This document shows, piece after piece, positions 9,466 through 61,769 of a stretch of DNA of 64,000 bases (its first letter is position 1; each line of letters opens with the position of its first letter). A program made the position numbers and the translations under genes. Under the pieces are notes generated by a model that had not been told where the DNA came from, did not search any database, and saw nothing but the letters and a program-made list of their open reading frames with translations. This stretch comes from Microgenomates group bacterium (lineage in GTDB: Bacteria > Patescibacteriota > Microgenomatia > Daviesbacterales > UBA10151), in assembly GCA_041659805.1 (NCBI GenBank), contig JBAZXP010000001.1, forward strand, positions 128,589 through 192,588, given 5' to 3'.

Positions 9466-10044
9466 CTAGTTATATTGATTCTGGGCAGCTTCTAATCCTT
9501 TTTCTATAACCATTTCTGTGGCTTTAACAGCTTCTTTAATCATTGTTTTAACCTTGCTTTTTTCAGAAGGGATAAAATCTTCCACCACAAATCTATTGGC
9601 ATCAAAATGTTTACCTGCCCTCTCTCCACCAATTGAATGAATATTTCCGATCCCAAGTCTTACCCTAATAAAATCAGGAGACCCCAAATCCTTAATCACA
9701 GATTCAACACCGTGATGTCCTGATCCCCCACCCCCAATTCTGATTTTTATTTTTCCTAAAGGTAAATCCAGCTCATCATGAATTAAAATAATATCTGATA
9801 AAGGAACTTTAAAATAATCTGCTACTAGTTTTACTCCCATACCAGAATTATTCATGAATGTCTGGGGTTTTACAAAAATAAATTGATCTGTTTTGGCAAT
9901 ATATGACTTGAGTTTTTTATTTTCTTCCCATGATACTTGATACTTAATACCTGATACATATTCATCCACCACCCTAAACCCCAGATTATGTCTGGTGTTT
10001 TCATATTTTTCTCCTGGATTTCCTAAACCGATAATTATTTTCAT
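9466..10044 (-). CDS. pth: Peptidyl-tRNA hydrolase
   Basis: MKIIIGLGNPGEKYENTRHNLGF N-terminus. Confidence 0.85.
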   Translation of the reverse strand: MKIIIGLGNPGEKYENTRHNLGFRVVDEYVSGIKYQVSWEENKKLKSYIAKTDQFIFVKPQTFMNNSGMGVKLVADYFKVPLSDIILIHDELDLPLGKIKIRIGGGGSGHHGVESVIKDLGSPDFIRVRLGIGNIHSIGGERAGKHFDANRFVVEDFIPSEKSKVKTMIKEAVKATEMVIEKGLEAAQNQYN

Positions 10045-11331: not shown

Positions 11332-11396
11332 ATATTAATTTATAATTGATAATTTAAAATTGATAAAAAAATTCTAAATTATACATTCTACATTTT

Positions 11397-16342: not shown

Positions 16343-16657
16343 ATGGTTAAGCAAACTAAGGCAGTAACTAAAGCAAAAGCTAAAGTAAAAAGAAAAGAAA
16401 AGAAAATAGAAGAAAAAAGATTCCACGAAGAGCTGATAGCTCAGCTATTGACTCTGGCAACGAGTGGTTTTGGGTTAGTGGCAGCACTGGCCTGGAATCA
16501 AGCTATTCAGGCTTTTGTGACCCAATATATTACCCCCCGTATTCCTGGCTCAGGACTTATTTCTCAATTAATTTATGCAATTTTGATAACCAGCTTGGCA
16601 GTTTTTATTACCTATCAACTTTCTAAAATTTCTAATCACCTGGAATCTAAAAAGTAA
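16343..16657 (+). CDS. Small membrane protein with Lys-rich N-terminus
   Basis: Two TM helices after a KAKAKVKRKEKK stretch. Confidence 0.35.
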   Translation: MVKQTKAVTKAKAKVKRKEKKIEEKRFHEELIAQLLTLATSGFGLVAALAWNQAIQAFVTQYITPRIPGSGLISQLIYAILITSLAVFITYQLSKISNHLESKK

Positions 16658-17789
16658 TCGAACCTTTTTCAACATTAATTTTTTGTACTTTTTTCATAAA
16701 ACCGGCTGGGATTTGTTCGTTTTCCACTGCTGAAATAATAGTTTGCTGACCAGAAACTGCAGAAATTATATATTCACGATGATTAGTATCAAGTTCTGAA
16801 AAAACATCATCCAGCAAAAGTATCGGACAAGTATTTTTAAATTGTTTGATAAACTGCAGCTCTGCCAACTTTAAATCCAAGACAGCAGTTCTTTGCTCTC
16901 CCCTAGAACCGAAATGAGCCATATTTTTGCCCTTATTGTGAAAAACAAAGTCGTCTCTGTGCGGACCAATTAAAGTATTTGCTGCCGCAATTTCCCTGCC
17001 CAAATATTCCTGAAGCCTTTCTGCAGTTAAAACACTTTCTAAATAATCAAATCTAAATTGAGATTCATTTTTTAAATCATTTAAACTTTGAAAAAAGAGT
17101 CTCCTTTTTTCAGAAACCACAATTCCGAAATCAACTACCTGTTTACTCCAAAAAGTTAGTTCATCAGTCCTGGCAAGTCCTTCTTTTATTCTTTTCAAAA
17201 TTCTATTCCGGGAAACAACAGCCTCGTGATAATGCGTCAAAGAATTTTTATAAAGTTTATCAATTTGAGCTAAGCAAAGGTCAATATGCCAACGGCGAAG
17301 GGCTGGTGGACCTGTCACTAAATTTATATCTTCCGGTGAAAAATGAACCACTACTAAATTACCAATATAATCAACAGAACGTCTGGGCACCCCATTTACC
17401 CTTACCCTTTTTTCCAACCCATTCCCTTCTTCTCTCAGTTGCATCCCAATTTCTAACTTTGTAGAATCTTCAACGGGTGGCACGAGTCGGGTCGCCCCAT
17501 GATGGGGCCCCGCACTTGCTAGCGTAGTGGGTAAATCATGGGGCTGACGAGTGACAGGACCCGTTTCTAAAACTTCTCCTTCCACAAAACACCCTACCTC
17601 CCCATCTTTAATTAGCTGAATATCTTTTTCTGCTCTGGGAGATTTAGTGGTGGCTAAAAAATAAATTGCTTCTAAGAAATTTGATTTTCCCTGGGCATTT
17701 TCTCCAATAAGAAGAGTCGTTTGATTAAAAACAATTTCCAGTTTGGAATAATTTCGAAAAGATGTAAGTTTGAGGTTCTTTAAAAACAT
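16647..17789 (-). CDS. recF: DNA replication/repair protein RecF carrying a GC-rich in-frame insertion
   Basis: Walker A LIGENAQGKSNFLEA and ABC-signature region; ~30-aa GC-rich insert (…GPVTRQPHDLPTTLASAGPHHGATRLVPP…). Confidence 0.8.
   Translation of the reverse strand: MFLKNLKLTSFRNYSKLEIVFNQTTLLIGENAQGKSNFLEAIYFLATTKSPRAEKDIQLIKDGEVGCFVEGEVLETGPVTRQPHDLPTTLASAGPHHGATRLVPPVEDSTKLEIGMQLREEGNGLEKRVRVNGVPRRSVDYIGNLVVVHFSPEDINLVTGPPALRRWHIDLCLAQIDKLYKNSLTHYHEAVVSRNRILKRIKEGLARTDELTFWSKQVVDFGIVVSEKRRLFFQSLNDLKNESQFRFDYLESVLTAERLQEYLGREIAAANTLIGPHRDDFVFHNKGKNMAHFGSRGEQRTAVLDLKLAELQFIKQFKNTCPILLLDDVFSELDTNHREYIISAVSGQQTIISAVENEQIPAGFMKKVQKINVEKGSITF
17474..17563. repeat. GC-rich (~60% GC) in-frame insertion within recF containing the hairpin GCCCCATGATGGGGC and the motif CTGACGAGTGACAGG
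   Basis: Sharp local GC jump inside an AT-rich gene; 6-bp stem hairpin; motif shared with the polA insert. Confidence 0.55.
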
Positions 17790-19881: not shown

Positions 19882-20742
19882 TTATTTTTGGCAGGAAGGG
19901 CAGAAGTATGTTCCACGACCAATCTGTTGGATTTTTTGAACAGTCCCAGGACAACTATTACATTTTTTTCCTTCTTTTCCATAAACATTGGCATAATCTA
20001 GAAAATATCCTTTTTTACCATCAACATCTACAAAATGAGCTCTGGTTGAGCCTCCTTTTTCTATAGAAACTTTTAAGGATTTTTGGATTCCTTTAACCAG
20101 ATTTTTAAAATCATTATCAGATAATGTTGAAACTTTTCTTCTGGGATCAATTCGGGCACCAAATAAGCTTTCTGAGGAATAAATATTTCCTATTCCTGAA
20201 ACAACTGATTGATCCATTAAAGCAACCTTAATAGGTTGAGATTTATGATGTAAGAGATTAGATTTAAGAATTTGCCAGGTAAATTCTTTCTCCAAAGGTT
20301 CAGGGCCTAGTTTTCCCAACACATTTTCAATTTTTAATTTTGAATTATCAATTAGCTTCACCCACCCAAATTTTCTTTGATCATTAAAAAATAATTTAGA
20401 ACCACTCGAAAATTCAAAAATAACTCTGGTGGATTTATTGGGTAAATCACCTTTCATATCAGGAGTAGGATGACCACCAATTATTCTGTCTTTCTCAGTC
20501 TTATCCACATAAATTAATTGTCCTGTCATTTTCAGATGAAATAAAAGCGTTCCATTTGATTCCAGATCTACACCAAGCATTTTTGCTCTTCTCCAAATTT
20601 CCTCCACTTTCGCTCCTTCAGCTTTTTTTTCTTCCCCAATAAATGTTTTAGAATTTAAGACTTGGATCCTTGTAACTTTTAAGCCGACTATTTTTCTTTG
20701 AAGACCTAATTTAATTGTTTCTACTTCTGGAAGCTCTGGCAT
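19882..20742 (-). CDS. mutM: Formamidopyrimidine-DNA glycosylase (Fpg/MutM family)
   Basis: N-terminal MPELPEVE and C-terminal zinc finger CNSC…CPSC. Confidence 0.8.
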   Translation of the reverse strand: MPELPEVETIKLGLQRKIVGLKVTRIQVLNSKTFIGEEKKAEGAKVEEIWRRAKMLGVDLESNGTLLFHLKMTGQLIYVDKTEKDRIIGGHPTPDMKGDLPNKSTRVIFEFSSGSKLFFNDQRKFGWVKLIDNSKLKIENVLGKLGPEPLEKEFTWQILKSNLLHHKSQPIKVALMDQSVVSGIGNIYSSESLFGARIDPRRKVSTLSDNDFKNLVKGIQKSLKVSIEKGGSTRAHFVDVDGKKGYFLDYANVYGKEGKKCNSCPGTVQKIQQIGRGTYFCPSCQK

Positions 20743-21006: not shown

Positions 21007-22179
21007 TTAAATATGGCAAAATATTTTTACCCAGTCAACCCTGTAGTTTTTTTCTATCAGTTGCGAAATTTTTTTCTTAAATTCTTCTTTAGAAAACTTT
21101 TCTGCCTGTGTAACACAATTCTCACTCTCATATTTTTCAGGTTTAAATTCCTTTAATACCTCCATTAAAGATTCTGTCGTAGCTTTTTCAAAGAATTCTC
21201 CTGTCGCTCGTCCTGAGCTTGTCGAAGGATTACCCTCCACTACAGTTTCTAAAAATCCTCCAGCTCTTAAAGCTATAACTGGTGTTCCAGCTGCCATACT
21301 CTCTACTGGCACAATGCCAAAATCTTCATCTTCTGACGCCACAATTGTAGCTTTTGCCCCTGCTAAAATTTCTGGGATATCTTCATCTTTAATAAGCCCT
21401 AAAAATTCCACATTTTTTCCAGCCAGTTTTTTAAGTCTTTCTAACTCTGGCCCAGATCCTACAACTTTTAAAGGTAAATCTAACTTAGTGCAAGCCTCCA
21501 CAATTATCTCTGTCCCCTTTCCTCTTACTAATCTACCCAGTGATAAATAATATTCTCTCTCTTTCTTAAATCTTAAATCTATATTCTTAAATCTCTTTAC
21601 ATCTATCGGTGGATAAATTACTTCTGAGTCTCTTCTATAAAACTTTTTGATTCTGGCTGCTATATTTTTGGAATTAGCAATTAGCACATCTGGCCTTTGG
21701 GCAATTTCAAAATCCATCAGTCTTAAGAAATGATTGGCTATTTCACCTGCAATTCTGGTCCACCAATGCTTTTTATAATTATAAGAAGTGGCATAACCAT
21801 AAAGGTATCTGGGAGGTGTATGAATATAATTAATATGTAGTGCTTCAGGTGAAGTGATCACAGTATTGGCAAAATAAGATGAAGAAGAAGAAATTACCAA
21901 ATCATATTCTGTTAAATCAAAACTCTCAAAAGCAGCAGGAGCCAAAACCCTTAAAGGAGAAATTAATTTGTTAGCAAAAGGCAAGTTTTGCATCCAAGAA
22001 GTTTTAATATTCCAATTCTTAATCCTTTGGGCATGGGGTCCTAACCCATTTAAATTTAAATAGCTAGTATAAATGGGAGCTTCAGGAAACATTTCATGCA
22101 ATGCTTCCAAAACTCTTTCTGCCCCACCATATTCCCTTAAATAATCATGCACAAGTGCAACTTTTAAATTTTTATCCAT
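21007..22179 (-). CDS. Glycosyltransferase family 4 (GT-B)
   Basis: EDFGIVPVESMAAGTPVIA motif. Confidence 0.75.
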   Translation of the reverse strand: MDKNLKVALVHDYLREYGGAERVLEALHEMFPEAPIYTSYLNLNGLGPHAQRIKNWNIKTSWMQNLPFANKLISPLRVLAPAAFESFDLTEYDLVISSSSSYFANTVITSPEALHINYIHTPPRYLYGYATSYNYKKHWWTRIAGEIANHFLRLMDFEIAQRPDVLIANSKNIAARIKKFYRRDSEVIYPPIDVKRFKNIDLRFKKEREYYLSLGRLVRGKGTEIIVEACTKLDLPLKVVGSGPELERLKKLAGKNVEFLGLIKDEDIPEILAGAKATIVASEDEDFGIVPVESMAAGTPVIALRAGGFLETVVEGNPSTSSGRATGEFFEKATTESLMEVLKEFKPEKYESENCVTQAEKFSKEEFKKKISQLIEKNYRVDWVKIFCHI

Positions 22180-23876: not shown

Positions 23877-26138
23877 TTATGCTGTCAATACTAGAGGCTG
23901 CATTTCACCCCAATTTGAACCTGTTTTTAAATCAACCACCACAGGCACAGATAATTTCAGTGCATTTTCCATTTTTTCTTTAACCATTAAAGCTATTTTT
24001 TTCACGCTAACATTATCACATTCGAACAAAAGCTCATCATGAATCTGTAAAATAAGTCGACAGCTTTCAGTATCGGCCTTCGGCCTGTCAGCTTTCAGAC
24101 TGTCTGACGACTGACGACTGACGACTGACAGCTCTTTATCTATCTCCACCATTGCCTTTTTGATCATATCTGCAGCTGTCCCCTGTACAGGGTGATTGAT
24201 GGCGGCTCTTTCGCCAAAAGATCTCATCATGTGGTTTTGGGCTTGAAGCTCTGGAAAGTACCTTTTTCTGCCACTTACGGTCTCCACATAGCCTTTATCT
24301 CTGGCTTCTTCCAGAGTTTTATTCATCCAAACCTTAATTTTAGGAAACTGTTCAAAATACTCATCAATATATGATTTGGCTGTTACATAATCAATTTTTA
24401 ATTGTTGAGCCAAGGCATGAGCACCCTGACCATAAAGTGTGGCAAAATTCATGGTTTTACCCACAGCTCTTTGTTCTTTTGTCACATTATCAATAGGAGC
24501 CTTAAATATTTTGGCAGCAGTAGCAGCATGGATATCTTCTCCGCTTTTAAAGGCAGCTATTAAGGCTGGATCTTCAGATAAATGAGCCATAATCCTAAGT
24601 TCAATCTGTGAGTAATCTGCAGCTAATAAAATTTTACCTTTGGGAGCAATAAAAGCTTTCCTGATTTCACCACCCTGCTGCCCTCTGACCGGAATGTTTT
24701 GTAAATTAGGATCAGATGAAGAAAGCCTACCAGTAGCAGCACCTTCAACATGAAAGGTCGAATGAATTCTGCAGTTCTCATCAGCATATTTTGGTAATGC
24801 ATCTACATAAGTTGAGACCAATTTATATAGAGTTCTATATTCTAATAGCAATGGAATTATAGGATTAACCTCATAAAGTTCTCTGAGAGTTCCTTCATCA
24901 GTTGAATACCCTGTTTTAGTCTTTTTACCAGCAGGTAGTTTTAATTCTTCAAAAAGCACTACTTGTAACTGCTTTGGACTGTTAATATTAATCTGATGTC
25001 CTACTTTTGAGTATATATCTTGTTCAAGATCAGTTAATTTGCTTTTTAAAAGCCTGCCAAACTTACTTAAAAAATCAAGATCTACCAAAACTCCAGCTGC
25101 TGACATTTTCTTTAAAACTTTATCTACTTGCGTGTCCAAATCTGTGGTTGCCTTATTCTGATTTTTTACACTATCGGTCTTGTCATTGTCATCCTGAGCG
25201 ATTAGCGAAGGATCTAATTTAGTTATACCCTTCACTTTGTTCAGGGTGACAGGTGGAACGTTCAGAATGACAGTTTCTATTCCTGGTATTCTCTTAATCA
25301 AACTTTTAAATCCCAACTCCTCAAAAACTCCTTTGGCAACTTCTTTATCAAACTGATGTATTTTACTCTGCTCTAAATCTAATTTTATAGGAACTTCAGT
25401 TTCTATGGTTGCCAGTTTCTTGCTCATAAAACCAGAATCTTTACCTGCTTCCAGTAATTTTTTGGTTCTTTCAGGTAATTTATCCAGGTTTTTGAAAATT
25501 TCTTCCAAAGTTGCATATTCCTGAATTAATTTTGTGGCTGTGACTTCCCCTATTCCTGGGACCCCTGGGATATTATCTGAACTGTCACCAGCCAAACTTT
25601 TGTAATCAATCATATTTATAGGTTTAAAGCCATATTTTATGGCAAACTCTTCTTCACCATATAACCCAACATCACTTAAAGTCTTTTTTGGCATTAAAAC
25701 TTTTACCTTGCTTGAAATTAGCTGCATTAAATCCCTGTCTCCGGTTAAAATTATTGTTTCTATATCCTTGCTTGATGCCTGTTTGGCTAAAGCCCCAATT
25801 AGATCGTCAGCTTCAAAGCCAGGTAAACCAAACTGAGGAATATCCATGGATTTTAAAACTCTATCCACAATATTGTATTGAGCAAGTAAAGCATCATCTG
25901 TTTTTACCCGGGTGGCTTTATATCCTTCAAATTGAACGTGTCTGAATGTGGGAGCTTTCTTATCCCAGGTTACAGCAACAAAGTCTGGTTTAAGATCACT
26001 AAGGGCCTTCAAAAGCATGGATGTTAAACCATATACAGCATTAACTAGTTCTCCTTGAGGAGAGGTTAAAGGAGGTGTGGCATGATAGGCACGATGCAAT
26101 AAAGCATTACCATCAACAAGTACAAACCTTTTTGTCAT
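23877..26138 (-). CDS. polA: DNA polymerase I (5'-3' exonuclease + polymerase domains; short or absent 3'-5' exo region), with a GC-rich in-frame insertion near the C-terminus
   Basis: N-terminal FEN motif LVDGNALLHRAYHA, polymerase motifs RAAINHPVQGTAAD and QIHDELLFE; 753 aa. Confidence 0.85.
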   Translation of the reverse strand: MTKRFVLVDGNALLHRAYHATPPLTSPQGELVNAVYGLTSMLLKALSDLKPDFVAVTWDKKAPTFRHVQFEGYKATRVKTDDALLAQYNIVDRVLKSMDIPQFGLPGFEADDLIGALAKQASSKDIETIILTGDRDLMQLISSKVKVLMPKKTLSDVGLYGEEEFAIKYGFKPINMIDYKSLAGDSSDNIPGVPGIGEVTATKLIQEYATLEEIFKNLDKLPERTKKLLEAGKDSGFMSKKLATIETEVPIKLDLEQSKIHQFDKEVAKGVFEELGFKSLIKRIPGIETVILNVPPVTLNKVKGITKLDPSLIAQDDNDKTDSVKNQNKATTDLDTQVDKVLKKMSAAGVLVDLDFLSKFGRLLKSKLTDLEQDIYSKVGHQININSPKQLQVVLFEELKLPAGKKTKTGYSTDEGTLRELYEVNPIIPLLLEYRTLYKLVSTYVDALPKYADENCRIHSTFHVEGAATGRLSSSDPNLQNIPVRGQQGGEIRKAFIAPKGKILLAADYSQIELRIMAHLSEDPALIAAFKSGEDIHAATAAKIFKAPIDNVTKEQRAVGKTMNFATLYGQGAHALAQQLKIDYVTAKSYIDEYFEQFPKIKVWMNKTLEEARDKGYVETVSGRKRYFPELQAQNHMMRSFGERAAINHPVQGTAADMIKKAMVEIDKELSVVSRQSSDSLKADRPKADTESCRLILQIHDELLFECDNVSVKKIALMVKEKMENALKLSVPVVVDLKTGSNWGEMQPLVLTA
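24057..24133. repeat. GC-rich in-frame insertion within polA: hairpin GGCCTTCGGCC plus tandem (CTGACGA)x3-CTGACAG
   Basis: Local GC jump; heptamer repeated three times then CTGACAG; inserted between the conserved QGTAAD and QIHDEL motifs. Confidence 0.55.
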
Positions 26139-35765: not shown

Positions 35766-35837
35766 CGCGGGGTAGAGCAGTGGTAGCTCGTGAGGCTCAT
35801 AATCTCAAGGTCCCAGGTTCGAATCCTGGCCCCGCAA
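35766..35837 (+). tRNA. tRNA-Met (anticodon CAT), initiator-like (C1:A72 mismatch), CCA not encoded
   Basis: CGCGGGG-T-AGAGC…CTCATAA…CCAGG-TTCGAAT-CCTGG-CCCCGCA-A. Confidence 0.75.
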
Positions 35838-35980
35838 CTTAGAACAGAAACCGTCCCTTGTGGGCGGTTTTTTGTTCAAAATGCGGACCGTAGGACAGAG
35901 AATCCGCGCTCCACGCAGTGGTGAAGCGGGTTCGGCAATCCACCACTGGTGGATTGGGCGTGTTATCCTGGCCCCGCAAC
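35838..35980 (+). repeat. tRNA trailer element B: terminator + conserved 29-nt motif + 16-nt exact copy of the tRNA 3' end
   Basis: ATCCTGGCCCCGCAAC at 35965-35980 is identical to 35823-35838; motif GCGCTCCACGCAGTGGTGAAGCGGGTTCG at 35905-35933. Confidence 0.6.
35850..35876 (+). terminator. Intrinsic terminator after the second tRNA(CAT)
   Basis: CCGTCCC-TTG-TGGGCGG hairpin + TTTTTTGTT. Confidence 0.5.
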
Positions 35981-36040
35981 ACAATTCCTATCCCATAACA
36001 GTTGACTTTTAATTTAACAATTCCTATAATCCCCTCAACT

Positions 36041-38744: not shown

Positions 38745-38905
38745 ACCTTAATTAAACTCCATGCGTCAAACAGCCCGCTTAGGTGAGAATGCAAGCGATA
38801 TAGCATGGCTGGTTGCATTAGGAAGAATCGGTATTAGCGAAAAGACAATTTTAACTGTTTGGGATACCAAGGAAGAAGAAAGCAGAAAATCGAAAAATTC
38901 CGACA

Positions 38906-39023
38906 TCTCTTAAATGGTGAAGCCGGGAGGACAACACACTTCCGCCTTCGGCGGATCCGAACCTCCAACCAGATGTTACATCTCAATCAAAAATTTGAGT
39001 GGAACTGTAGGACTTGAACAGTG
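38906..39023 (-). other. Structured GC-rich trailer downstream of tRNA-Ile (possible third, diverged copy of the tRNA-trailer element); not a tRNA
   Basis: Contains GGAGG-TTCGGATCCGCCGAAGGCGG…-CCTCCCGGCTTCACCA; the 3' part resembles the tRNA-Ile 3' end (TCCTTCCGGGCC). Confidence 0.3.
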
Positions 39024-39095
39024 TAGGCCCGGAAGGAGTTGAACCCTCGTCACGACTGTATAAGAATCGGGTATTAACCGTTATACGACGGGCCT
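39024..39095 (-). tRNA. tRNA-Ile (anticodon TAT / UAU)
   Basis: AGGCCCG-TC-GTAT-AACGGTTA-ATAC-C-CGATT-CTTATAC-AGTCG…GAGGG-TTCAACT-CCTTC-CGGGCCT-A. Confidence 0.65.
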
Positions 39096-39119: not shown

Positions 39120-39323
39120 CTATTTTAGGAGTGAGGAGATTAAAATTGTGATAGTAATTGAGATTACGATAGTTGATAAAACTGGGATGTAAAATTTCAT
39201 TCCAATTTTATCTATATAAATATCCCCCCACATATGAAACGGAGCCTTGGTAATAAAATTAAAAAGGAGTGTTTCTAAAGTCCAAACAAGCGCTGTAATT
39301 GTCATAATCCTGTTAAAATCCAT
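39120..39323 (-). CDS. Small membrane protein (last gene of the ATPase operon)
   Basis: Two TM helices; start overlaps the stop of the upstream ATPase. Confidence 0.3.
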   Translation of the reverse strand: MDFNRIMTITALVWTLETLLFNFITKAPFHMWGDIYIDKIGMKFYIPVLSTIVISITITILISSLLK

Positions 39324-41674
39324 TAAAGAGATGTCCTCCTGTTTATATCTGCTTCAACCGTTGCTACATCCCTGCCATAAGTTAGTCTGGATAGTTCCTT
39401 AATTGCTGCAGCTATTTCCGGTCTTTTCATCCCGTTCCAGGCGTTAAAATCAATGGAAACTTTCATGGAAAAAGGTGGCACTGGTTCACCGTGAACCTGA
39501 GTTTTCATATATACATGCCATGCTTCCACATTTACCAAATCCTGCTCAGAGAATACCGGTGCAAATTCGTGCTGCAGGAAATTGGCGTCAGTCACACCAA
39601 CTCTGTAAGAAATAACAGTACCCACATTTCCAAAGATGGCATTTTTAATATCTTCCGGCATCTGACCAATAAACTGATTAGCCACAATCAGGTCTAATTT
39701 ATATTTTCTGGCCTCAGATAAAATGGTGGCAAAAGTGTCGGTGGCAAAATTCTGGAATTCATCTACATAAAGGTAAAACGGCTTTCTTTGCTCCTCCGGA
39801 ATATTGGCCCGGGACATTGCTGCTGCCAAAATCTTTGGTACTAAAATTAGCCCTAAGAAGTTAGAATTTTCCTCCCCCATCATACCTTTGGATAAATTCA
39901 CAATTAAAATTTTTCCTTCATCCATAATCTGACGAAAATTAAATGAAGATTTAGATTGCCCGATGATATTTCGAAGCATTCTGTTGGTGACAAATCTACC
40001 AAATTTGGAAACTGTATAATCCAACACTTCCGATTTATGAAAATCAGCAGTGTGGGCAATCTGGTCTGTCCAATAACGCCTGACTACCGGATCAGTTACA
40101 TGAGGCAATAATTCTTTCACATACTCCGGATCCTGCATAATCCTCATCACTTCTACAAAGGTGTTTCCCTGAACCGACATGACAGTTAACATGGCGTTTC
40201 TAATACCGTGTTCAAACCTAGGCCCAATAATACCGGTTTTATTGGGGTCATAAAGCTTATACATCAAACCAATAATTTCCGTAGTGATAAAATGTTTTTC
40301 ATCCTCAGAGATTGCTTCCATCATGTTCATGCCAAACGGCCTATCGACATCTCCCGGATTAAAATAAATCACATCTTTTGCCCTATGAGGAGGTATCAAA
40401 GACAACATCTCTTCAGCTGCATCTCCGTGGGGATCAATGAAAGCCAAACCTCTACCTGCCATAATATCCTGCAACATTAAGGTTTTTAAGAGCGTTGTTT
40501 TTCCTGTACCGGTACGCCCAATCATATACATGTGTCTCTGGCGATCGTCTTCGGAGATAAAAACAGGCCTTTCTGTTCCCCGGAAGATTGATTTGCCAAG
40601 ATATAATCCTTCTGTGGGGATTTTTTCTGAAGCAGGAGCAGACCTAGCTGCCAACCAATTAATATGTGGCGTGGTAATTTGTTTATTGGGAAAATGATAA
40701 ATTGAGGCAATCTCATCTGAAGTTAAAACAGGAGTTTTGGTAAACATCGGCATATAACGGTAAACAAAATCAGTCATAAATCCTTTTTCTGATTTTACTT
40801 TGGCGCCTGTAAAATTATTATAGGGACCGGAAAATTGCTCAAAAGCAGCTTTAATATTAGAAAGATGAGCTTTGGCGCTTTCTTTACTGGTGGAAGATGT
40901 CACGATTCTGATAGCCACATTAAAACCGGGTTTGGAAATTTTAGTTTCAACGGCTTCCAATTGTTTGGCATCCGGCGGTGGCTTAGGAGCATCGGGCTTG
41001 CCTGGTTCTTTTTCTTTTTTAACAAATTTTTTGCCTGCATCTTTCCATTTATTATCAGCCGGAGCAACAACCATCTGAATGACAGCTCCCTCCCCTGTTT
41101 GCATTTTTGCCAAAGCAGCAGTCAACGATGACAAAGGATCAGTCGGCAAATCTTTATAAGTTTTAATGGGAAAATAGTCAGAACTTTTAAGAGTATACAT
41201 CGCATAGGCAGTCTGTCCTTGTTCTGTAAAAATATTATATTCAGGCATTACTTTGATTTCAGCATCAGGATAAGCTCCATGAACTTGTTTTTCAATTAAA
41301 TCCTGTAAAGATTTAGGTACAGAAATATAAAAGGTAATTGCCTCATGTTGAGCCACAATTTCAAAGGAAAAATGTTGTTGAGGTGTAAGATTCATAAATC
41401 CACCTGATTTACGGACAGAATATAAAGCTGCAATCAGCTGTTCTGTGGCATCAATCTTAATATCGTTATCACGGGTCACAGCCACTTTTATTAATACTGA
41501 ATTCAGTGAATCTTTTTCTCTGTTTCGATCTTTGTACCAAGCCAAAAAATACCTGCCAAAATAAAGAATTAATAAAACTACAGCAGCTAAAGCCAGTCCC
41601 AAAACAATAAACAGCATAAAAGCATTAAATATTTCAGGGATAGGTGTAGTTGTTGTGCTTTCGGTTACTTCCAT
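39323..41674 (-). CDS. Membrane-anchored P-loop ATPase of the FtsK/HerA/TraD-VirD4 superfamily (type IV coupling-protein-like)
   Basis: N-terminal TM helix, Walker A MIGRTGTGKTT, Walker B-like LYVDEFQNF. Confidence 0.5.
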   Translation of the reverse strand: MEVTESTTTTPIPEIFNAFMLFIVLGLALAAVVLLILYFGRYFLAWYKDRNREKDSLNSVLIKVAVTRDNDIKIDATEQLIAALYSVRKSGGFMNLTPQQHFSFEIVAQHEAITFYISVPKSLQDLIEKQVHGAYPDAEIKVMPEYNIFTEQGQTAYAMYTLKSSDYFPIKTYKDLPTDPLSSLTAALAKMQTGEGAVIQMVVAPADNKWKDAGKKFVKKEKEPGKPDAPKPPPDAKQLEAVETKISKPGFNVAIRIVTSSTSKESAKAHLSNIKAAFEQFSGPYNNFTGAKVKSEKGFMTDFVYRYMPMFTKTPVLTSDEIASIYHFPNKQITTPHINWLAARSAPASEKIPTEGLYLGKSIFRGTERPVFISEDDRQRHMYMIGRTGTGKTTLLKTLMLQDIMAGRGLAFIDPHGDAAEEMLSLIPPHRAKDVIYFNPGDVDRPFGMNMMEAISEDEKHFITTEIIGLMYKLYDPNKTGIIGPRFEHGIRNAMLTVMSVQGNTFVEVMRIMQDPEYVKELLPHVTDPVVRRYWTDQIAHTADFHKSEVLDYTVSKFGRFVTNRMLRNIIGQSKSSFNFRQIMDEGKILIVNLSKGMMGEENSNFLGLILVPKILAAAMSRANIPEEQRKPFYLYVDEFQNFATDTFATILSEARKYKLDLIVANQFIGQMPEDIKNAIFGNVGTVISYRVGVTDANFLQHEFAPVFSEQDLVNVEAWHVYMKTQVHGEPVPPFSMKVSIDFNAWNGMKRPEIAAAIKELSRLTYGRDVATVEADINRRTSL

Positions 41675-60922: not shown

Positions 60923-61257
60923 CTCCTCGACCAGGACTCGAACCTGGAACCTTCTCGTTACAAGTGCCCTTCTGTTACCAAAAGGCTTGGACTATCTCAT
61001 AACCGTGATCCACCAAAGTAGATTTTAGGTCCTAGGTATATAGTCTCTACACGTTTATCCTTCGACTCCGCTCAGGACTATAGTCCTAAACTTCGTTTGG
61101 GAATTTAGCTCGGGATTATCCTTCGACTTCGCTCAGGATCGTTGATCCTTTGATTAATCTTAAGGACTTCCCCGAATTAGCCCAGTTTCCATTCTGATAT
61201 TTCTATCAGAAGCTGCGATTCCCACAGCGAGCCGCTCTACCATTGAGCTATCGAGGA
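60923..61257 (-). tRNA. tRNA-Asn (anticodon GTT) interrupted by a ~263-nt intron in the anticodon loop
   Basis: Exon 1 (61224-61257) TCCTCGATAGCTCAATGGTAGAGCGGCTCGCTGT + exon 2 (60923-60960) TAACGAGAAGGTTCCAGGTTCGAGTCCTGGTCGAGGAG splice to a canonical 72-nt tRNA with loop CTGTTAA, closely resembling E. coli tRNA-Asn. Confidence 0.6.
60961..61223 (-). other. Putative group I intron in tRNA-Asn
   Basis: 5' exon ends in U pairing with internal guide GCAG (P1 CUGU/GCAG with U·G), intron ends in G, R-like GUAGAGACUAUAUACC and S-like GAGAUAGUCC able to form P7 (GACUA/UAGUC); carries an internal 25-nt direct repeat. Confidence 0.5.
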
Positions 61258-61318
61258 TTATATTTCAATTAAAAATTTATAATTTAGAATTGATAATTTA
61301 TTTAAAGTGCTAAAACCA

Positions 61319-61687: not shown

Positions 61688-61769
61688 TTTGTTTTAATTA
61701 TACATTCTACATTATCAATTCTATATTGAATAAAGCTTGCTAAATAGCCTCAAAAAAGGTAAAATAGAT

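Follow-up and report, generated by a model that had tools for sequence, protein, structure and literature searches.

In-frame copies of two hairpin-forming repeat families in recF and polA of a Daviesbacteria-like bacterium

Why do two essential genes of an AT-rich bacterial genome each carry a short GC-rich segment that leaves the reading frame intact? The question was raised by a 64-kb stretch of DNA from a Microgenomates group bacterium (GenBank assembly GCA_041659805.1, contig JBAZXP010000001.1, positions 128,589 to 192,588; the window from here on), in which a first-pass annotation had noticed such segments in recF and polA and had likened them to the palindromic elements that insert in frame into genes of Rickettsia. 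Both segments belong to repeat families, here called family B (recF) and family A (polA), and family A is multicopy within single genomes (Daviesbacteria assemblies). Copies lie in many unrelated genes and in intergenic DNA, keep a constant frame, are present in some orthologs and absent from others, form covarying hairpins and fall in protein loops. With a probability of roughly 75%, the two segments are copies of two unrelated, small, non-coding, hairpin-forming dispersed repeat families, that is, selfish palindromes filtered by selection and resembling MITEs (transposable elements of the miniature inverted-repeat type) or the inverted doublets of repetitive extragenic palindromic (REP) sequences known as REPINs.

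The window has a mean GC content of 35.5% (SD 7.4; 60-nt windows, as for the two regions named next). Against this background the recF region 17452-17567 reaches 57% GC with a peak of 68%, and the polA region 24073-24134 reaches 58%. The two host genes and the elements delimited within them are as follows.

16647-17789, minus strand: recF, 380 aa, intact open reading frame (ORF), Pfam SMC_N/AAA_15, host of the family B element
17472-17565, minus strand: family B element, sense strand AACGGGTCCTGTCACTCGTCAGCCCCATGAT...ATCATGGGGCGACCCGACTCGTGCCACCCGTT, peptide TGPVTRQPHDLPTTLASAGPHHGATRLVPP
23877-26138, minus strand: polA, 753 aa, intact ORF, 5'-3' exonuclease and family A polymerase domains, host of the family A element
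24056-24132, minus strand: family A element, sense strand GCTGTCAGTCGTCAGTCGTCAGTCGTCAGACAGTCTGAAAGCTGACAGGCCGAAGGCCGATACTGAAAGCTGTCGAC, peptide LSVVSRQSSDSLKADRPKADTESCR, in the loop between helix Q and motif C

As delimited here, the elements contain 64% GC in recF and 56% in polA, compared with 33-37% in the remainder of each gene, and each is open in exactly one of its six frames, the one used by its gene. The GC contrast, the preserved frame and the hairpins GCCCCA-TGA-TGGGGC (recF) and GGCC-TTC-GGCC (polA) that the annotation had described were thus all present. Both elements fold as RNA on the mRNA strand into closed structures with paired ends, at -40.2 kcal/mol for recF (z -2.6) and -34.0 kcal/mol for polA (z -3.4). 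The peptide stretches that belong to the inserts, if these are translated, are ...GPVTRQPHDLPTTLASAGPHHGATR... and ...QSSDSLKADRPK.... The recF and polA segments were the only GC islands within ORFs that were not explained by conserved motifs or Pro/Ala linkers; the GC islands in ftsH, trxB, eamA, a dsbA-like and a virD4-like gene encode such motifs or linkers and are not elements. RecF and PolA of the window are 100% identical to NCBI proteins of 'Microgenomates group bacterium' (the former named RecF by NCBI), and their closest named relatives are from Candidatus Daviesbacteria. Pfam detected no 3'-5' exonuclease domain in the window PolA.

Where the inserts fall in the proteins was examined on solved homologs, in which both map to loops (RecF and the Klenow fragment). 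The polA segment lies between QGTAAD and QIHDEL, as annotated, in the loop equivalent to Klenow 'AVDAWLQAEQPRVRM' in the alignment to the solved structure. The RecF insert had been assigned to the coiled coil, and here the assignment did not hold. In the alignment to structure 5z67, RecF residues 74-122 take the place of 16 residues of the N-terminal ATPase lobe. The AlphaFold model (mean pLDDT, the predicted local confidence score, 85.5) has a single segment with pLDDT below 50, residues 78-105, flanked by strands 66-74 and 109-118, and its long helices are at 162-239. The RecF insert is thus predicted to form a disordered loop in the ATPase head, at a beta-hairpin tip, and lies outside the coiled coil.

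Alignments of 120 homologs of each protein were consistent with insertion. The RecF site is usually a turn of 3-8 residues (...VEGEV-x-TKLEIGMQ), with a minority of homologs carrying inserts of unlike sequence; close RecF orthologs lack the family B insert, which lengthens the window RecF by 31 residues relative to the insert-free ortholog P0003. The PolA loop preceding C-x-(L/M)-ILQ(V/I)HDEL ranges from ~5 to ~45 residues (mafft alignment of C-terminal segments), and the three closest PolA homologs (77-78% identity) are without the insert. These alignments show both segments to be lineage-specific insertions at hypervariable sites, as the annotation had expected of them. The window polA insert peptide LSVVSRQSSDSLKAD... 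was found again in the RecF inserts of relatives (P0002, as LSVVSHQSSDSLKAEDSVLMT; P0009, P0033, P0038 and P0025), which gave the first sign of a repeat family moving between genes.

The DNA of the relatives was obtained through exact protein look-up. A stretch of ~45 nt (TGTCAGTCGTCAGTC[G/A]TCAGTCGTCAGACAGTCTGAAAGCTGA) is nearly identical in the window polA, in recF of L001 and in fpg of L004, the last with a longer loop. Family A elements are ~75-100 nt long and are built from heptamers: a left arm of ~4 tandem units (AGTCGTC / AGCTATC / AGTCATC), a short A/T-rich loop or none, and a right arm of complementary heptamers (GTCTGAAAGCTGATAGCTGAAGACTGACGACTA), often with a nested GC mini-hairpin. 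The corresponding parts of the window copy are the following.

24104-24129, minus strand: left arm, heptamer array (Tandem Repeats Finder, TRF: period 7, 3.7 copies, 100% match); its unit is CTGACGA x3.7 on the plus strand, equal to GTCGTCA/GTCAGTC on the sense strand
24075-24085, minus strand: nested mini-hairpin GGCC-TTC-GGCC in the right arm, where other copies have GCGAAGC or a longer GC hairpin

A scan for CAGTCRTCAGN{1,20}GTCTGAMAGCTGA in one genome per GTDB species returned 110 matching stretches, with ~1 expected by chance by calculation. At least 13 copies were found in one assembly of 0.9 Mb (JAQUSJ01) and at least 12 in another (CAYQAW01); the copy numbers given for the families are lower bounds, as the patterns are strict and match exactly. 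Among the 80 stretches with listed contig titles, nearly all come from Daviesbacteria, including metagenome-assembled genomes (MAGs) labelled 'uncultured Gammaproteobacteria', together with a few Gottesmanbacteria, three Omnitrophota, one Blastocatellia and one Mucilaginibacter. The MAGs titled 'uncultured Gammaproteobacteria bacterium' that carry family A derive from binchicken/SRP co-assemblies (L004, L012, L016, L020 and others). This label looks wrong, as at least the assembly with L004 encodes RecF and PolA that resemble those of Daviesbacteria.

The canonical family A copy, found outside long ORFs, has the 5' half TAGTCGTC-AGCTATC-AGTCATC-AGTCGTC-AGAC, a loop of ~10-14 nt and then GTCT-GAAAGCT-GATAGCT-GAAGACT-GACGACTA, together forming a heptamer-built hairpin of ~30 bp; a variant carries a nested GCGAAGC or a longer GC hairpin in its right arm. 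Inside ORFs of at least 150 codons, 35 of 116 copies were found, all in one constant orientation and frame. For the other 81, each open spanning frame is shorter than 150 codons; these were treated as intergenic, and most have the canonical right arm. In the host frame the canonical right arm reads ...ADS*RLIA, with TGA stops, and the in-gene copies are variants that avoid these stops, as would be expected if the element is translated but not if it is spliced out. The hosts assigned by Pfam are GyrB, GyrA, ATP synthase alpha/beta, LeuRS, TopA, P-type ATPase, RF1/2, an FNR-like protein, a PEGA protein and DnaX; PolA, RecF and Fpg are further hosts. The peptide S(V/I)VS(R/H)QSSD..SLKAD.. was found in 13 kinds of host gene.

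When the window is compared with distant Daviesbacteria, the polA element shows 74-85% identity and the flanking, catalytically conserved polA DNA only 65-75%, and the nearest relatives, whose polA flanks are 75-81% identical, lack a family A element. An element better conserved than its flanks misfits a vertically inherited neutral loop and fits repeated insertion or conversion from a genomic pool, which argues against strict vertical descent from one ancient event. Family A copies begin with TAG and end with CTA, both of which belong to the palindrome itself. Some intergenic copies are placed alike across genomes: 3-8 nt before the start of an apparent fmt gene, assigned from its encoded N-terminus (L013, L065, L026, L028), or just upstream of a 16S rRNA gene (L014, L088) or a tRNA gene (L035, L073, L085). 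A hammerhead ribozyme in family A was considered on account of CUGANGA, GAAA and GUC in the heptamers and was rejected; no Rfam hammerhead matched, and these motifs follow trivially from CTGA-type heptamers.

Family B differs in architecture. It is a GC-rich structured palindrome of ~85-105 nt (~94 nt in the window) with the conserved blocks CGGGTCCTG, CAGCCCCA, CCCAC, GGGG(A)CCCC, TGGGGCTCCCCG and CACCCG joined by covarying stems. The first-pass annotation had tied the two inserts together through a motif CTGACGA...TGACAG. The motif exists, but it is not enriched: CTGACGA occurs seven times in the window, three of them in the polA array, with ~4 expected from base composition. Nor does it link the inserts, which belong to two distinct families, one a heptamer-array hairpin and the other a CGGGTCCTG...CACCCG palindrome. 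The stems of the window family B copy are located as follows.

17535-17544, minus strand: 5' arm of the central stem, sense GCCCCATGAT, pairing with 17494-17503
17494-17503, minus strand: 3' arm of the central stem, sense ATCATGGGGC, overlapping the small GCCCCA-TGA-TGGGGC palindrome
17510-17529, minus strand: optional apical hairpin, sense CACTACGC-TAGCAA-GTGCGG

The closest counterpart of this copy is the RecF insert of P0011/L006, in which every stem is changed and complementarity is kept (window ACGGGT/ACCCGT and CCCCATGAT/ATCATGGGG; L006 GCGGGT/ACCCGC and CCCCACGCG/CGCGTAGGG). The arms of the central stem differ yet stay complementary in other copies as well, being CCCCAGAAT/ATTCTGGGG in L118 and CCCCACGCG/CGCGTAGGG in L006. 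In the apical hairpin the loop TA(A/G)CAA is conserved and the stem covaries: TGCGC/GCGCG (L118), TAGGC/GCCTG (L006), TCGTC/GACGG (L227) and ACGCC/GGCGG (L121). A HMMER search with the 33-residue RecF insert peptide gave one true match, P0242, a spurious ORF of 71 aa, whose contig carries an intergenic family B copy upstream of leuS with the third stem version CCCCAGAAT/ATTCTGGGG. The other match, P0241, is an irrelevant low-complexity repeat protein.

Metagenomes were scanned with the pattern CGGGTCCTGN{6,10}CAGCCCCAN{5,9}CCCAC, which yielded 112 stretches in two groups. The first consists of ~24 compact copies (85-105 nt) on low-GC contigs, two of which share one contig of 26 kb (L180), and the second of ~75 longer relatives on contigs of 62-72% GC. 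Copies related to the window element are those of L006, L118 and L004 together with 20 metagenome contigs, and the window copy matches the family B alignment with an nhmmer E value of 8.5e-18. Across 24 low-GC copies, 91.3% of the stem cells are paired, and 67 cells are changed on both sides, compared with 22 in shuffles (0/500); the covariation score is 0.285, compared with 0.10 in shuffles and at most 0.078 with the partners slid. The 3' blocks TGGGGCTCCCCG and CACCCG are conserved in these 24 copies even though the search pattern did not demand them. Only ~8 G-U pairs occur among ~480 paired cells.

A further family B copy was found by nhmmer inside polA of L004, in the interdomain linker, where it encodes ALGPAARQPHP...GAPRLASP in the same frame as TGPVTRQPHD...GATRLVPP of the window. 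In the window PolA the linker between the exonuclease and polymerase domains is variable and ~90 residues long. On the metagenome contigs, the in-frame hosts are LeuRS (twice), LepA, a P-type ATPase, a GT4 glycosyltransferase (twice) and another RecF at the same hairpin; CarB, TsaD and a DUF2298 protein have copies in antisense. The 13 sense in-gene copies have one common peptide motif and the 4 antisense copies another; the peptide GPxxRQP(H/Q)...GAPRLxSP was found in at least 7 kinds of host gene. The occurrence of copies in both orientations and the near-absence of G-U pairs indicate that the palindrome is kept on both strands and is an element at the DNA level rather than an mRNA-specific structure.

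The GC-rich relatives share the basal architecture of family B, namely a CGGGT/ACCCG closing stem, a CCTGYC/GYC internal loop, a 7-bp helix and AGCCCC.../...GGGGC with a CCCC bulge. Their length is ~200 nt (for example L184 2315-2510; set L119-L230), their apex is larger, and on the outside they bear inverted repeats of ~25 nt, which vary from one subfamily to the next; the flanks beyond these are unrelated, as in MITEs. Some contain duplicated CCCCAC-hairpin-GGGGACCCC modules. The ArgG encoded on L184, a GC-rich contig, is 87-88% identical to proteins of 'MAG: Betaproteobacteria bacterium'. Family B is present in several low-GC lineages resembling the Candidate Phyla Radiation (CPR), with longer relatives in GC-rich Betaproteobacteria-like bacteria. 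A pseudoknotted family B structure like that of hepatitis delta virus (GGGUCC pairing with GGACCC) was considered and found to be unsupported, as the 5' strand is fixed by the pattern and the window copy is mismatched (GGCCCC).

Tandem heptamers are not confined to the polA element. TRF found 7 period-7 tandem arrays of at least 3.5 copies in the window, compared with 0.1 in shuffles (~70-fold), and at most 1 array for every other period. The arrays (~3.5-4.4 copies) are at the following positions.

9931-9957: period-7 array
11336-11394: period-7 array
20323-20353: period-7 array
21564-21594: period-7 array
24104-24129: period-7 array, the left arm of the family A element
61274-61301: period-7 array
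61697-61715: period-7 array

They lie inside fpg, a glycosyltransferase gene and another ORF and also between genes, with the units AGTCGTC, AGCTATC, CGACTAC, GAAGACG and AT-rich variants. Arrays at orthologous positions may have other unit sequences while their length and phase stay the same. At one fpg site the window has AATTGAT... and L004 has AGTTGTC AGCTATC AGTCGTC, and the glycosyltransferase gene and the gene at 9931 show the same pattern. The loops are re-used as well. In relatives, the PolA loop also holds VIPAKAGI..., VIASEAKQS, SLRGAxRRGNLP and IASSQTPRNDV, which are peptides typical of other palindromic repeats, and the RecF hairpin is occupied by A-type, B-type or plain heptamer arrays. 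One fpg site is empty in the window and in L003 and is filled in L004, by family A, and in L001, by a VILSETKDL-type module.

The most economical mechanism would be that proposed for Rickettsia palindromic elements (RPEs) and intragenic MITEs, namely non-autonomous spread (PMC10969869). Copies would land at many places in the genome; within genes, only those in permissive surface loops, in the sole stop-free orientation and frame and of a frame-preserving length, would be tolerated; and the tolerated copies would be translated as an extra, probably disordered, loop peptide. Provided that most of the DNA is coding, as it typically is in genomes this compact, the finding that ~70% of family A copies lie outside long ORFs suggests that most genic insertions were removed or avoided. 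The hairpins at the DNA level and the lack of an evident target-site duplication make the elements resemble REPIN systems with their REP-associated tyrosine transposases (RAYTs) or elements derived from IS200/IS605, and mobility would most likely depend on a trans-acting transposase that recognises DNA hairpins. For RecF and PolA themselves the inserts are probably neutral or nearly so.

Several observations weigh against this account. The same loops (the polA motif C loop, the RecF hairpin and two fpg loops) are repeatedly filled by different families, and period-7 arrays with other units stand at orthologous positions; random insertion plus selection does not fully explain such loop re-use and array swapping, and targeting or conversion between copies may be involved. 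In-gene family A hairpins are as stable as those outside long ORFs (-32.1 and -33.1 kcal/mol), which pure decay of junk does not predict. No second copy of either family was found in the window by motif search, blastn-short or nhmmer, and this organism's genome was absent from the reference-genome loci examined, of which 80 of 110 had listed contig titles. No transposase, RAYT-like gene or parent insertion sequence (IS) turned up, and neither the window nor the loci were the subject of a systematic search for one. A target-site duplication could not be delimited; in family A, the TA/TAG...CTA at the ends is inseparable from the palindrome, and comparison with empty sites gave neither exact boundaries nor a duplication, the loops themselves having diverged. 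Because the search pattern itself demanded the conserved blocks on the 5' side of family B, ascertainment accounts for part of their invariance. That the inserts are translated rather than removed is, moreover, a probable conclusion drawn from the conservation of frame.

The loop re-use, the heptamer excess and the array swapping keep alive, at least for family A, an explanation by local origin and spread, in which slippage of heptamers, intrastrand template switching and gene conversion build and overwrite palindromes, so that concerted evolution needs no transposase. An excess of arrays restricted to period 7, orthologous arrays equal in length and different in unit (fpg, the glycosyltransferase gene and the gene at 9931), hotspots re-used by different families, the missing target-site duplication and an element conserved better than its flanks, as conversion from a genomic pool would give, all agree with it. 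Local processes, however, cannot independently give rise to one and the same stretch of 45 nt in three genes (recF, fpg and polA) from different genomes, nor to the complex family B core common to CPR-like and Betaproteobacteria-like genomes; intergenic copies with unlike flanks and clear boundaries look like insertions, and conversion would still require an initial dispersal. On balance we regard purely local origin as unlikely. Covarying stems, conserved loops, hairpins equally stable within and between genes and conservation above that of flanking coding DNA could alternatively reflect cis-acting mRNA or DNA structures selected in place, serving translational pausing for domain folding, mRNA stability or processing, or replication and recombination signals; the like-placed intergenic copies directly upstream of fmt, the 16S rRNA gene and a tRNA gene point the same way. 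Such a function is made quite improbable by close orthologs that do well without the elements, by families that interchange at one site, by family B copies inside genes in both orientations and by the scarcity of G-U pairs, and the hosts are unrelated, share no regulatory theme and have no Rfam match at the elements.

It is also conceivable, at very low probability, that the segments are removed intervening sequences (a mini-intron, an intein-like peptide or a translational bypass as in T4 gene 60 or mitochondrial 'byp'), with mature proteins free of them. It would suit this idea that the inserts, GC-rich and strongly structured, lie in essential genes while the genome is AT-rich; a genuine group I intron lies elsewhere in the window, and CPR bacteria are known for introns in RNA genes (PMC7143001). 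Removal would nevertheless leave unexplained why 35 of 35 in-gene family A copies share frame and orientation, why the sense and antisense in-gene family B copies (13 and 4) each keep a peptide motif of their own, why the window copies are open in the host frame only, and why in-gene family A variants avoid TGA in that frame, which is expected only if they are translated. With 77-94 nt, the elements also fall far short of the size of group I or II introns or of inteins, and they gave no Rfam matches.

Dispersal of selfish palindromes, which we prefer, can be extended into a broader proposal that we hold only tentatively and consider doubtful. Family B would then be an undescribed, cross-phylum class of structured mobile nucleic-acid element that, jointly with family A and other palindromes, has remodelled the surface loops of a large proportion of the essential CPR proteins, with the same loops preferred. 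The conserved unpaired blocks between covarying stems (the CCUGYC/GYC internal loop, the CCCC bulge, the CCCAC...GGGGACCCC apex and the UAACAA loop) would form the recognition or catalytic core for a hairpin-specific mobilisation machinery. In that case, the lineage-specific insertions that characterise CPR proteins would have in palindromic repeats a major source not recognised until now.

Among known systems, the closest parallel is offered by the RPEs, short palindromic dispersed repeats that occur between genes and in frame in many unrelated housekeeping genes, where each family contributes a peptide of its own at sites considered compatible with the fold (PMC10969869). A 2024 review of MITEs only speculated about such protein remodelling in other prokaryotes (PMC10969869). 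The elements described here are likewise hairpin-forming, dispersed and multicopy, present in some orthologs and absent from others, and inserted in frame into essential genes at fold-compatible loops, with a constant frame and a peptide motif for each family. In this respect the comparison drawn by the first-pass annotation, with miniature palindromes inserted in frame into replication and repair genes, was upheld by the copies found elsewhere, both within further genes and between genes as well as in other genomes, and by the close orthologs that lack them. The differences lie in the hosts (CPR/Daviesbacteria rather than Rickettsia), in length (75-105 nt against ~100-150), in GC-rich composition within an AT-rich genome, in the heptamer construction of family A, in a family B core that has relatives in another phylum and tolerates both orientations, and in loops re-used by several families. 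Homology to RPE families is unlikely, given the different phylum and the GC-rich composition, and the likeness appears to be one of kind.

REPs and REPINs are short hairpin repeats with many copies per genome, whose inverted doublets form hairpins of 70-110 nt; they are mobilised by RAYT (IS200/IS605-like Y1) transposases, show compensatory stem changes and leave no classical target-site duplication. A palindrome kept at the DNA level fits the scarcity of G-U pairs seen here. REPs are, however, extragenic by definition, whereas ORFs hold 35 of the 116 family A copies and many of those of family B, and the conserved 5' GTAG head of REPs is not evident in the present elements. MITEs share with them non-autonomy, a length below 300 nt and inverted ends, the present elements being 77-105 nt long and wholly palindromic, and the GC-rich family B relatives add terminal inverted repeats of ~25 nt and different genomic flanks. 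MITEs such as ERIC, BOX, the Anabaena MITEs and Correia elements occasionally form in-frame fusions with host ORFs (PMC10969869), but the in-gene frequency and the concentration in essential genes found here are far above those of typical MITEs.

The ~70-fold enriched, dispersed heptamer arrays and the mini-hairpins nested in family A recall two cyanobacterial repeats. The short tandemly repeated repetitive (STRR) sequences of cyanobacteria are dispersed tandem heptanucleotide arrays, and small palindromic repeats of Nostoc nest in other repeats. The present arrays belong to another phylum, have other units, form long hairpins by pairing and, where they lie within genes, are read through in frame. 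Yeast mitochondria, whose genome is AT-rich, harbour GC clusters and 'byp' elements, which are likewise GC-rich, hairpin-forming and mobile and invade coding sequence; a byp element breaks the frame and the ribosome skips it, whereas the elements described here are always open in the host frame.

Database and literature searches returned no earlier description. Rfam 15 gave no match to either element or to any relative, whether at the gathering score or with E values up to 10. A phage vector was looked for among 2.9 million viral contigs, in which neither pattern occurs. No paper was found that ties CPR/Patescibacteria to RPE-like elements, in-gene MITEs or heptanucleotide repeats or that prints these sequences. 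Families A and B thus add to a known kind, the RPE-like in-frame palindromes, in a phylum for which no earlier report was found, and they go beyond the known picture in the heptamer-built hairpin, the cross-phylum family B core and the re-use of hotspots.

Other features of the window are given for completeness. A group I intron (RF00028, 61.5 bits, 60968-61296; window 60925-61254, minus strand) interrupts an apparent tRNA gene with the exons TCCTCGATAGCTCAATGGTAGAGCGGCTCGCT (5') and TGTAACGAGAAGGTTCCAGGTTCGAGTCCTGGTCGAGGAGCA (3'), whose anticodon loop may read UGU (Thr) and which was not called by ARAGORN. A third small palindromic module (TCCTGAGCGAAGTCGAAGGAT), of the type of the 'VILSETKDL' insert in L001 fpg, is present twice in the intron. 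The 3' end of tRNA-Met (TCCTGGCCCCGCAAC, 35824-35838) is repeated exactly 142 nt downstream (35966-35980), the two repeats bracketing a terminator-like hairpin and a GC-rich structured segment (35874-35988); the repeat may be the attachment-site scar of an integrated or excised element, or the segment a small RNA. ARAGORN called a tRNA-Ile with the anticodon TAT (UAU), unusual in bacteria, at 39023-39095 on the minus strand, adjoined by a GC-rich structured segment at 38900-38982. A 783-aa protein encoded at 39323-41674 has weak matches to VirD4/TrwB/TraG coupling proteins and may belong to a type IV secretion or conjugation-like apparatus of the sort known from Patescibacteria. Most genes lie on the minus strand, and the cumulative GC skew falls almost monotonically, by -7.75 over 64 kb; a whole-chromosome strand disparity of a similar kind has been described in other Microgenomates (PMC7143001, different genome).

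The essential replication, repair, translation and energy genes of Daviesbacteria-like bacteria carry in-frame palindromic repeats on a scale previously documented mainly for Rickettsia. The usual picture of CPR/Patescibacteria, whose genomes are tiny and streamlined, is one of few mobile elements. The heptamer-array excess and the loop re-use point to a mechanism of insertion or conversion, and the family B core shared with Betaproteobacteria-like genomes raises the question of how phyla were crossed and what moved it. The repeats account for a class of odd inserts in CPR proteins, GC-rich and of low complexity, and for some of the spurious small ORFs, both of which confuse annotation, alignment and structure prediction, and they provide natural markers of the permissive loops in essential enzymes.

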